Positions 51,845 to 54,995 of a DNA stretch of 64,000 nucleotides are shown here, in pieces. The notes below the pieces were generated by a model. That model saw only the letters and a list, made by a program, of their open reading frames with translations, searched no databases and was not told the DNA's origin. Within the stretch, counting starts at the first letter, position 1; every line of letters begins with the position of its first letter. The translations under genes and the position numbers were made by a program. Location: NCBI GenBank assembly GCA_964016885.1, contig OZ024740.1:373426001-373490000 (forward strand). The letters run 5' to 3'. The stretch is from Eledone cirrhosa (Eukaryota).

Positions 51845-52095
51845 CCTTCAAGCATAGCTTCATACAAATATATATAGACATTTAGTATTTCTAAAGAAAC
51901 AAGGTTTTAGGAAGCCGTAGCTATGCAAACACCGGGGCTAACGCCCCCTGGCGTTGTCCAGCAGAAGCAAGGTGTACACCGTCTATGCATTTCAGGCTTG
52001 ACTGGGCTTCGTCAGGATGGTCCCACCCAACGCTTGCAATTGTTTGACATGAAAACAGTCGAGAATATATAGTTTTCTCGTTTATGTATGTTAAA
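51845..52095 (-). mobile_element. Rz-B copy; hammerhead at 51978-52021
   Basis: Minus strand: ACCATC-CTGACGA-agcccagtcaagcct-GAAATGCATA-GACGGT. Confidence 0.75.
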
Positions 52096-52187
52096 ACGAA
52101 TTCGTTTTGGTAAAAACAGTTATAGGCAGTAGAAAGATCTCTACATCGTAGCTTTTATTTACGATGGAGATTCAGTATAAGAATATG

Positions 52188-52435
52188 AAGAAATGCTGAT
52201 TATATATAAATTCTTTATTCATAATAATTATTTCAACGGTCCTATTATGCAATCCATAATTTAATGTATGCATTGGTTGCCATTTGCCTCCAGCATATCA
52301 CAAAATCGGATGTTCATCTGAAGATACTGATCTCATAAAAGCAACAAAAGTATACCTTACATCATGGATTACATAATGGAACCGTTGAAATGATCATTAT
52401 GAATAAACGATTTATAAAATATCAGCGTCTTTCTT
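52188..52435 (+). mobile_element. pLTR with long-stem-II hammerhead (52313-52403) and diverged inverted 5' copy
   Basis: TTCAT-CTGAAGA-[62 nt]-GAAAT-GATC-ATT-ATGAA. Imperfect arms 52188-52270 / 52350-52435. Confidence 0.7.
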
Positions 52436-52534
52436 AATGTTATTTACACACACACACACACACACACACATACACACATACACACACACACACATCACAT
52501 ATATATATATATATATATATATATATAGATATAT

Positions 52535-53232
52535 AATAGAAATAGGATTTTGCTTCGAGCAGAGCTTTATACAAATATGTATAGAAATTTCGTATTTCTA
52601 AAGAAATACGGTATGTTTACCTGAACATTTAGGAAGCCGTAGCTATGAAAACACACTGGTGGTGTCCAGCAGAAGCTAGGGGGGCAACTGTCTATGCATT
52701 TCAGGCTTGACTGGCTTGACTGGCCTTCATCAGGACGGTCCCTCCCACCGCCGAGATTATATAGTTTTCTCGACTGTGTAAATGAGGTGATTAATCGCAT
52801 TTGCATATGAAGCTGCATATGGTGGCTCAACTTATAATAGAATAGAGATCCTATTCTATTCTATTATATGTTCTAGTATAATTTCTATACATATTAGTAT
52901 AAAGCTATGCTCGAAGCGAAATTCTATTTCTATTGTATTATAAGTTGAATCAACTTATGCAGCGCCACTTGCAAATGAGATTAATCACCTCAATTACACA
53001 GACGAGAAAACTATATATTCTCGACTGTTCTCAAGTCCAGCAGTTGCAAGCGGTGGGACGGACCGTCCTGATGAAAGCCAGTCATGCCTGAAATGCATAG
53101 ACGGTTGTCCCCCTTGCTTCTGCTGGACACCACAAGAGGGTCTTAGCTCCGGTGTTTGTATAGCCATGACTTCCTAAATGTTTCCTGTAAACATACCGTG
53201 TTTCTTTAGAAATACAAAATTTCTATACATAC
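52535..53232. mobile_element. Head-to-head pair of Rz-B units: 52535-52850(-) and 52880-53232(+), 338-nt period
   Basis: AATTTCTATACATA occurs at 52880 and 53218. The two copies are different circular permutations. Hammerheads at 52687-52739(-) and 53062-53105(+). Confidence 0.85.
53062..53105 (+). ncRNA. Minimal type-I hammerhead, intact core
   Basis: ACCGTC-CTGATGA-aagc-cagtcat-gcct-GAAAT-GC-ATA-GACGGT, with palindromic ATGCAT. Confidence 0.88.
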
Positions 53233-53894
53233 ATTCATCTATATATTTACGATTGCAACTACAATGCGAAATAAACATCTGTACAGAAAACATATATAAT
53301 CTCGTTACTTGTATACAATTGTTTAGCAAATATTTCATGAGGTTAGATCAAAATAAGAAAAAGAATTGAATTTTTAATATGTTCCACAGTTAAAGGCGTT
53401 ACATGCATTTACGCACGCACAGAGAAACGCAAACACAAACACACGCACACGCACGCATGTATATATATAAATATATATATATATATATATATATATATAT
53501 ATATATAACTAGCGCAACATATTTTATGTGTCTGGTTACAATATATATTTACGTATGAATTACAATATCCTTTAAATTATTTTTTCGGCATTATCTTTCT
53601 CAAAGAATATCTATAATTATTTATGTAGATGAGGTATGTTCTGAAGCTAATTGCAGTGCTGTAGAAAATGTATATTGTTCTGTTTCGATCGGTTTGTTGA
53701 GAATTCAGAATAATATTAGTTATTTCTAAACAAATAAAAAAAAAAAAAATAAAAATATATATTGACATAGCGATTCCTTCGTGGTATATCCTGACAGTTC
53801 TCTTCAATTCACACACTCGTTACAGGTATATATATATATATATACATATATATATATATATATATATATATATATATATATATATATATATATA

Positions 53895-54006
53895 TGTGTG
53901 TGTGTGTGTGTGTGTGTGTGTGTGTGTGTGTGCGTGTGTGTGTGTGTGTGTGTGTGTGTGTGTGTGTGTGTGTGTGTGTGTGTGTGTGCGTGTGCGTGTG
54001 TGTGTA
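53895..54006. repeat. (GT)n microsatellite
   Basis: Directly visible. Confidence 0.95.
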
Positions 54007-54038
54007 TATGTAATGATATATATATATATATATATAAA

Positions 54039-54255
54039 TGTCAGCTCGAAACTAACACAGAGGGTGCTGACGTTACATGTATATGCTCACCGACATTCAG
54101 AGTTTATCCTTGGCGATACCCTACACGGGCAGTCTTTAAGAGGGATACCGAGGATGGCATATATCGATGCTCTAAGGACAGACATTGGTCTCTGGGAGCC
54201 GCAGGACATGGTGGCGATGATGAAGGACACACCACTGGAGACAACTCTTTCATAG
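54039..54255 (+). mobile_element. RTE-like LINE ORF C-terminal remnant
   Basis: VSSKLTQRVLTL..AHRH..ILGDTLHGQSLRGIPRMAYIDALRTDIGL...MKD resembles the RTE tail pattern RRLR..GH..R...G.R.RGRP...YID....D.GL. Confidence 0.6.
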
Positions 54256-54739
54256 ATCCCACATATTTTACCCGCCCTATATATATATATATATATATAT
54301 ATATATATATATATATATATATATATATATATAAATATATATATACGAATAGTGGAGTTACATTTTATTACGAATCGGTTGCCTAACCTAAACCGTCGGA
54401 GTCACCTGTACATATAGAAACACCTATACTCATTCCGAATGTTCTCACTCATAAATGACCCATACTAAATCAGCAACAAGGCTTGTTGACTTCATACACG
54501 AGACCATTCACGGTAACTCTACGAACAGTGATCCTAATTCAAATAATACCCCTCACTTTAATTGTAACACGCTCTTCTTTCTATATATCTACCTTCACCT
54601 AAACGAACAATAATTCACAAAACGAACGTATACCGCGTTTAACAAGGTTATCTGGTTCATTTTGTTATATACTACATTCTCCCACTCAGCTCTCTATAGC
54701 TTACTCTGTTTACCTTGGCCTGAACGACAAGCGCAGTAT

Positions 54740-54995
54740 ATTTATAAATAAATATTCTGAAAGCCATATTGGTGTTCGGTAGAAACAAGTGTGACAACCG
54801 TCGATTGATTTCGAACTTAAATCGTTCTCGCGAGGACGGCGCTTCCCTCTCTCGCTAAGGCCGGCCTTTTCAACAGGAAAAAATATATAATGTTTTCGTC
54901 TGAGTAAATGAGGCGATTAATCTCATTTTCATATGAAGCTGTATAAGTTGGCTCAAATTAAATAGAATTAGAATTTAGATTCGAAAATAGCTGAT
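54740..54995 (-). mobile_element. Divergent Rz-B copy; decayed hammerhead at 54797-54840
   Basis: Minus strand: GCCGTC-CTCGCGA-GAAC-gatttaa-GTTC-GAAAT-CA-ATC-GACGGT. 54885-54990 matches about 52758-52845. Confidence 0.65.

Follow-up and report, generated by a model that had tools for sequence, protein, structure and literature searches.

Introduction

The closest described relatives of the element considered here are the metazoan non-long-terminal-repeat (non-LTR) retrozymes and the endonuclease-bearing (EN+) Penelope-like elements (PLEs). The canonical metazoan type I hammerhead has a helix I of 6 bp, a helix II of 4 bp, a short helix III and a palindromic loop, and works as a dimer (PMC4209133). 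The PLE insertions described so far are partial tandems with 5' truncation; they frequently have an inverted copy alongside and a 30–40-bp tail at one end only, and they are biased to microsatellites (PMC8557442). The tail has been traced to two internal start sites of the reverse transcriptase (RT), and both target strands are nicked and extended at AT-rich DNA (PMC11167929). The mobilization of animal retrozymes by PLEs has been argued from co-occurrence, common hammerheads and homology with the pseudo-LTRs (pLTRs) of PLEs (PMC7229834; Li et al., bioRxiv 10.64898/2026.07.22.740005). The present report concerns a 338-nucleotide (nt) hammerhead repeat in a 64,000-nt stretch of DNA from Eledone cirrhosa (assembly GCA_964016885.1, contig OZ024740.1, positions 373,426,001 to 373,490,000, forward strand), which as a whole is called the window. 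An original prediction from the sequence had placed four clustered, circularly permuted copies of this unit at positions 51845-54995. We read the locus, with a probability of about 0.75, as dispersed and decayed copies of a high-copy, non-coding 338-nt hammerhead repeat that is likely a metazoan non-LTR retrozyme and is likely mobilized by PLE proteins.

The 338-nt Unit and Its Four Copies

The copies are named c1 to c4 from left to right, their 5' and 3' ends refer to the strand bearing the hammerhead, and unit positions are numbered on the plus-strand copy c3 (window coordinate minus 52879).

51833-52088, minus strand: copy c1, 5'-truncated, from unit ~116-120 through 338 to ~43-54 (0.8 unit)
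52535-52846, minus strand: copy c2, from unit 50 through a full turn and then ~6 nt to ~55
52848-52868, plus strand: inverted unit fragment of 21 nt (unit ~42-63), abutting c2 on its 5' side and followed by an 11-nt spacer before c3
52880-53231, plus strand: copy c3, from unit 1 through a full turn and then to 14, head-to-head with c2
54735-54992, minus strand: copy c4, GAAC/GTTC subfamily, decayed, starting at unit ~24 and reaching 253 on alignment score, or ~318 as judged by eye

As predicted, the plus-strand copy begins and ends with the same 14-mer (at 52880 and 53218), which gives the period of 338 nt. The 14-mer occurs a third time at 52589 on the minus strand, within c2; it is therefore sequence of the element itself, and c3 measures one unit and a further 14 nt. 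Comparison of c3 with the window by BLAST bore out the cluster, with exactly four homologous copies at E ≤ 0.01 and matches to c3 at E 4e-59, 3e-52 and 1e-34. The copies are 71–89% identical to each other (c2 and c3 89%), and none is pristine. They span 0.8–1.04 units, and c2 and c3 alone are longer than one unit. The adjacent minus-strand copy was correctly said to start elsewhere on the circle (c2 from unit 50, c3 from unit 1). The period of c2 is 306, with 26- and 14-nt deletions plus a 9-nt duplication, and its 3' end possibly reaches unit ~63 if one 5-nt repeat was dropped.

The unit has 41% GC and no coding capacity, the longest Met-started open reading frame (ORF) on the 338-nt circle being 44 aa in sense and 57 aa in antisense orientation. 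The c3 unit folds with a z of -4.9 as a linear and -5.6 as a circular molecule, against -0.3 to 0.7 for four of five flanks; the fifth flank is a separate palindrome. Between c1 and c2 lies a 266-nt imperfect palindrome (52179-52444, arms 73% identical, folding z -9.4) that is unrelated to the unit, single in the window and possibly a miniature inverted-repeat transposable element (MITE). A transcript through c2 and c3 (52535-53231) is predicted to form a long imperfect double-stranded RNA fold-back, from which small RNAs directed at the family might derive.

The Family in DNA Sequencing Runs

Of six sequencing runs, none recorded as RNA, four DNA runs were compared with positions 52870-53300 at 80% likeness, namely two contig runs (one sample) and two raw-read runs of restriction site-associated DNA (RAD). 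The family is very high-copy, in the thousands or more. This 431-nt stretch was matched by 2856 and 3050 contigs in the two contig runs, and the summed depth, which is not a copy number and is taken only to indicate thousands of copies or more, rose to 1.5–1.8e5 in conserved bins vs. ~7–13 on unique flank. At both ends of c3 the loose ends of matching sequences continue the unit, so that the ends of c3 are not those of the family. Joints go back 338 nt, and the end of the unit joins its start in c1, c2 and the contigs. The predicted circular permutation stands insofar as the sequence closes on itself with a period of 338 nt; against it, the 3' ends cluster and a tandem linear transcript fits equally well. 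Joints between opposite strands were also present in the DNA runs, with inversion joints at several other positions, and solo copies exist. Dips in depth (e.g., at unit 51-65) were not taken as a sign of ends, since equally deep ones accompany every departure of c3 from the family sequence.

The Hammerhead Ribozyme

A strict scan for type I hammerheads gave six matches in the window, three of which are those of c1 to c3, and none in 200 block-shuffled windows. The hammerheads of the four copies are as follows.

51978-52021, minus strand: type I hammerhead of c1, core intact, one mismatch each in stems I and II, predicted cut after 51984
52687-52739, minus strand: type I hammerhead of c2 with an intact core, an AGGC/GCCT stem II, a single mismatch in stem I and a duplication of 9 nt in loop II
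53062-53105, plus strand: type I hammerhead of c3, core intact, predicted cut after 53099
54797-54840, minus strand: hammerhead remnant of c4 with complete pairing in stems I and II, a core broken by the loss of two conserved bases and a non-palindromic loop III

In c3, helix I has 6 bp and is extended by a long stem (unit ~157-248), helix II has 4 bp, a 7-nt loop and a private A-C mismatch at 53076, and helix III is a single pair with a palindromic tetraloop. The unit thus has the architecture of the canonical metazoan type (PMC4209133). The minimal hammerhead of PLE pLTRs differs in its long helix II (6–8 bp), short helix I and bulged base before helix II; the 338-nt unit has a helix I of 6 bp, a helix II of 4 bp and no bulged base. 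The computed cost of an intramolecular helix III is 5.4 kcal/mol, and the loop III palindromes of two copies form a 6-bp intermolecular duplex of -4.7 kcal/mol.

Stem I was predicted to be conserved as ACCGTC/GACGGT, which is true of the family and literally so of c3 only; c1 and c2 have one mismatch each and in c4 the outer pair is G-U. Likewise, the predicted change of stem II from AGGC/GCCT to GAAC/GTTC is a real covariation, with AGGC/GCCT found literally in c2 only (one mismatch in c1 and in c3). The divergent copy does have paired GAAC/GTTC stems, and its core is broken, with CTCGCGA in place of CTGANGA. Across c1 to c4, three of the four pairs of stem II are altered on both strands, a covariation of four sequences that is weak alone (21 of 500 shuffles score as high) and comes from c4 only. 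In the DNA runs, the family majority repairs the stem II mismatch of c3 (53076 A>G in 96–99% of contig depth and of plus-strand reads) and has a perfect AGGC/GCCT stem II. The two contig runs also hold a sister subfamily whose core is intact and whose stem II is GAAC/GTTC, seen in the loose ends of 55 and 56 contigs, respectively. These two observations establish the covariation as real, and c4 is a decayed member of the GAAC/GTTC sister subfamily.

Among the 40 of 86 variants listed, the only majority change inside CTGANGA/GAAA is at the free N7 position. The core position C3 is changed in 28–42% of plus-strand reads of the RAD runs, from 2–3 read starts. The differences of c3 from the family are mostly unpaired (21% paired vs. 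57%), which was not counted because the structure was computed from c3 itself. Rfam gave no match at the gathering score in the window; at E ≤ 10 over 51000-55300 the hammerheads of all four copies were unmatched and the sole match was a neighbouring hammerhead at 51285-51356. RNAalifold on c1 to c4 recovered the long stem I and two hairpins, did not recover stem II of the hammerhead, and gave an unfavourable covariation term. A hammerhead pattern search found no loci in metagenome contigs and none in viral contigs.

3' Ends and Insertion Footprint

Both c1 (~43-54) and c2 (~55) have their 3' ends in (TA)n tracts; that of c1 enters the tract at 51561-51832, and c2 enters (TA)n with its "tail." At two RAD loci the family sequence gives way to TA- or AT-rich DNA, one at unit 52 and the other at 59, and both loci occur in both raw-read runs; they are taken from the six best loose ends of each of these runs, with 561 further ones overall. 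Four of the six known 3' ends therefore lie at unit ~43-60 in TA-rich DNA. On a uniform circle, at least four of six ends would fall within an 11-nt arc with P=0.002, an optimistic value given that the end of c1 is blurred over ~11 nt and that the RAD ends are the best-supported ones. Copy c3 stops ~40 nt before the usual 3' end, without the "tail," which would accordingly measure ~38–46 nt in this family, as estimated from one tail-less copy. The 14-nt repeat of c3 may in part reflect duplication of the target at a site of microhomology. The predicted cut site at unit 220/221 lies inside all four copies, and none starts or ends there. From these positions, the ends of the family appear non-random and may carry a PLE-like insertion footprint. 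The target hotspot that had been suggested is plausible for TA-rich DNA, two of the copies ending in (TA)n and one of these tracts being common to another hammerhead element.

The head-to-head pair c2 and c3 could also be taken for one 700-nt inverted repeat, that is, a MITE or fold-back DNA element in which the hammerhead is incidental. The pair does form a long imperfect inverted repeat, 73% identical over 708 columns. Single copies, however, have no terminal inverted repeats (7–10 of 20 matches, with AT-rich ends), the outer ends of the pair are not mirror images (unit ~55 vs. 14), and solo copies, other inversion joints and covarying ribozyme stems all speak against such an element. The check named in the original prediction thus refutes a MITE, which we regard as extremely improbable.

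Two other families of the window show the Penelope footprint and are listed here with a third hammerhead element.

14834-15345, 28130-28504, 30695-31499, 32467-32818, 42776-43083 and 47750-47958: second ORF-less type I hammerhead family
51165-51560, plus strand: third hammerhead element, hammerhead at 51285-51356 with perfect stems (Rfam HH9, E 2e-7, below the gathering score)
28721-30650, 36737-39218, 13209-14360, 19209-19760 and 42630-43600: ORF-bearing Penelope-like family

The second hammerhead family, whose cores pass the scan at 28204 and 31153 and which shows a period of 472 at 30978/31450, is distantly related to the 338-nt family. Three of its copies score z 4.6–5.4, against 0 of 300 shuffles and with both controls negative, and the common ribozyme contributes to this similarity score. 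Its eight 3' ends all fall in two classes ~50 nt apart and all run into microsatellites. It includes two partial tandems and two inverted pairs, the pairs being tailed on one side only, and it shows the Penelope footprint more cleanly than the 338-nt family does. The third hammerhead element is 60% like the second family and meets the (TA)n tract of c1 from the opposite side. The ORF-bearing family carries a minimal hammerhead in its 3' pLTR, with the bulged base and a longer helix II. Seven of its ends lie at one motif, of which four pass straight into (TA)n, two carry a ~60–65-nt tail and one is unclear, and its inverted pair at 43160/43596 is tailed on one side. The ORF fragments of the window are assigned to PLEs by GIY-YIG matches (one of 11 fragments above the Pfam cut-off, two weaker), by RT matches and by an 861-aa RT+GIY-YIG homologue. 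An ORF-less hammerhead family and its relative appear to carry a PLE-specific footprint beside an ORF-bearing PLE that shows the same.

It might be asked whether the copies are a self-standing family at all, or pLTRs left over from 5'-truncated autonomous PLEs. Their tail, inversion and microsatellite signature is that of PLEs, the DNA upstream of c1 is not unit sequence, and homology between retrozymes and pLTRs has been reported (Li et al., bioRxiv 10.64898/2026.07.22.740005). The unit nevertheless closes in 338 nt with no ORF between laps, and its hammerhead is of the canonical 6/4-bp build, unlike the minimal one of the window PLEs with its bulged base and longer helix II. Left-over pLTRs are for these reasons an unlikely source of the copies.

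Several points, besides those already noted for the P value and the four-sequence covariation, weigh against a retrozyme mobilized by PLE proteins. Only c3 ends at unit 14, so that the "tail-less" site amounts to n=1 plus analogy. No same-strand tandem of two hammerheads was seen in the window or in the contig pieces listed, and tandem arrays define the retrozyme class. On its own, c2 has no folding advantage over shuffled sequence (z -1.2). The 5' strand of stem I is without the bulge motif that is present in the HH9 match at 51285-51356, and ribozyme activity may consequently be low; eight of nine Xenopus dimers assayed by Li et al. (bioRxiv 10.64898/2026.07.22.740005) failed to cleave. The tail zones of the 338-nt and second families were not brought into register by alignment. 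No autonomous partner with common sequence was found among 10 PLE-adjacent regions, where 39 of 40 PLE-terminus comparisons gave z ≤ 1.7 and the remaining one (z 3.7) is a scattered AT-rich alignment.

Template and Proposed Mechanism

Every copy runs across the cut site and has its ends elsewhere, which leaves a ligated circle or uncut tandem RNA as the template. For a retrozyme mobilized by PLE proteins, the inferred steps are tandem source loci, dimeric cleavage, ligation and PLE-primed reverse transcription. Source loci elsewhere with at least two tandem units would be transcribed, and two hammerheads would join by their palindromic loops III, with cleavage at unit 220/221 releasing a monomer, which a host ligase may circularize. 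The GIY-YIG endonuclease of a PLE would nick (TA)n DNA, and its RT would start internally, at unit ~55 or ~14 (the optional "tail"), copy backwards across the cut site and stop at variable points (0.8–1.04 units). Priming from both target strands could leave head-to-head pairs. Each of the four local copies has one hammerhead, so none can release unit-length RNA, and they are likely dead ends.

The same element and the same PLE machinery could have used a linear, uncut or partly cut tandem transcript, with the hammerhead dispensable for insertion. All the ends fit a molecule of 1.2 units (unit 1-338 followed by 1-60), 220/221 is not an end of any copy, and hammerhead mutants of an anole PLE insert normally, unprocessed RNA being the main substrate (PMC11167929). 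On the other hand, c2 and c3 stop ~6–14 nt past one lap from different starts, for which a circle is simpler; this rests on n=2, and the second family has overhangs of 115 and 188 nt. Studied retrozymes of this size also accumulate as circles (PMC7229834). The linear version of the reading is a serious contender, at somewhat below even odds. As to the template itself, the balance between circle and linear tandem RNA is nearly even, with the circle slightly favoured because the longer-than-unit copies stop 6–14 nt past one lap and because studied retrozymes accumulate as circles.

A more specific version of the PLE-mobilized retrozyme, which we offer as a rather doubtful conjecture, is that the RNA circle is the direct Penelope substrate, with two fixed internal RT starts, copying through the ligated hammerhead junction and a stall 6–14 nt past the lap. 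A protein dimer would prime from the two target strands on separate RNA molecules, and c2 and c3 would be a single event in which two sequence variants were joined head to head. If this were true, the genomic ends of the family would be a readable record of a missing step in the retrozyme life cycle.

The c2/c3 Pair and the Clustering of Copies

For 28 positions at which c3 deviates from the majority of the family, c2 agrees with the majority at 20 and with c3 at 4, and has a gap at the other 4 (counted by eye); the four c3-like letters are all polymorphic in the family. As c2 mostly follows the majority at these deviant positions, nothing ties c2 and c3 to one RNA molecule. The pair may have arisen by two insertions at a single AT-rich site, from one old event, or from one event that used two templates.

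Four copies in 3.2 of 64 kb have a P of 0.0004 as four events and of 0.007 as three, under uniform placement and post hoc. Such clustering, together with the fact that c2 and c3 each run just over one lap in different registers, could be explained by insertions of randomly permuted RNA circles that were re-inserted locally from one copy. The clustered 3' ends disagree with random permutation. The copies are 71–89% alike and belong to at least two subfamilies, and c2 keeps the majority letter at most of the positions where c3 deviates. We consider randomly permuted, locally re-inserted circles very unlikely. Local re-insertion, which had been proposed for the cluster, is also not supported, given the distances between copies (11–29%) and the lack of any copy with two hammerheads in tandem. 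Repeated insertion into a target rich in microsatellites is the likelier explanation, because the copies come from at least two subfamilies and none is able to release unit-length RNA.

Other Features of the Window

Further features lie outside the families described above.

2082-2633, 20125-20652, 39935-40966, 49246-49605 and 57152-57481: other putative PLE end fragments with GIY-YIG or RT
1309 (plus strand), 33568 (minus strand) and 3462 (minus strand): further hammerhead-like motifs from relaxed scans
22409-23364, 33037-33311 and 58360-58705: long palindromic elements, arms 82–94% identical
27349-28146, minus strand: 3' fragment resembling a long interspersed nuclear element (LINE), zf-RVT match
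~54040-54255, plus strand: presumably similar to a LINE C-terminus, no Pfam match

Among these other PLE fragments, 57152-57481 alone passes the Pfam cut-off, and it has an RT+GIY-YIG homologue. The region at 1309 has a 69% copy at 39334-39685.

Comparison with Known Systems

Metazoan non-LTR retrozymes, for example axolotl Rtz_331 with HHR_Amex1 and the mussel retrozymes of 350–390 nt, have units of comparable size (PMC7229834). They are non-coding, have GC contents below 50%, are strongly self-paired and very high in copy number, and occur in genomes with PLEs (PMC7229834), as does the 338-nt family. With 338 nt and 41% GC, the unit lies within the ~150–450 nt, GC <50%, non-coding range of metazoan retrozymes, and strong self-pairing of the monomer was found in c3. 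A type I hammerhead is present in the cores of c1 to c3 and in the family-majority stems, and is broken in c4. The original assignment to a retrozyme-type element holds up on size, hammerhead build, lack of coding capacity, strong folding, high copy number and co-occurring PLEs. HHR_Amex1 also has a single-pair helix III with a palindromic tetraloop (PMC7229834). The differences are that metazoan retrozymes form tandem arrays, whereas here only dispersed 0.8–1.04-mers are seen; that the main 338-nt subfamily has A-U at the base of helix II where metazoan retrozymes have G-C; and that circular RNA and cleavage are described for studied retrozymes, whereas the 338-nt family is known here from DNA (PMC7229834). 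No long terminal repeats around an internal region were found; a primer-binding site and a polypurine tract were not searched for.

Li et al. (bioRxiv 10.64898/2026.07.22.740005) have described "solo" monomers that are dispersed, co-occur with PLEs and are proposed to use PLE machinery, like the 338-nt family. Their evidence is co-occurrence and pLTR homology, whereas here it is an apparent insertion footprint, and no pLTR homologue was found. In the text searched, the word "tail" does not occur and inverted insertions are not mentioned for the elements. The present locus differs from an "active" retrozyme locus in their sense in having one hammerhead per copy, with c2 and c3 on opposite strands; it is a locus of monomers, not an "active" one.

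The EN+ PLEs and their pLTRs share with the 338-nt family the partial tandems, variable 5' truncation and adjacent inverted copy, as well as the AT-rich or microsatellite targets, a type I hammerhead and, probably, the optional tail (PMC8557442; PMC11167929; PMC4209133). Unlike them, the family lacks an RT/GIY-YIG ORF and has a canonical rather than a minimal hammerhead. An autonomous PLE was rejected, as the unit closes in 338 nt without an RT+GIY-YIG ORF. The Chlamys PLEs, e.g., MRC1, are likewise non-autonomous and form pLTRs and head-to-tail insertions (PMC8557442). They are green-algal, mostly without canonical hammerheads, and have 3' sequence in common with a known autonomous partner (PMC8557442), whereas for the 338-nt family no such partner was found among the PLE termini of the window. 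A tRNA-derived short interspersed nuclear element was also rejected: ARAGORN found no genes, and at ≤1 mismatch there was no A box or full B box, the only promoter matches being one-mismatch B cores.

A PLE-type footprint on retrozymes was not reported in the literature searched, and supplements or other papers may hold one. Given the thousands of copies, a survey of ends across an assembly would be an inexpensive way to identify the machinery at work and to tell a circular from a linear template. Overall, the 338-nt family is most likely an additional member of a well-known class that includes many invertebrates, and what it adds to that class is an apparent PLE-type insertion footprint on a retrozyme-type family.

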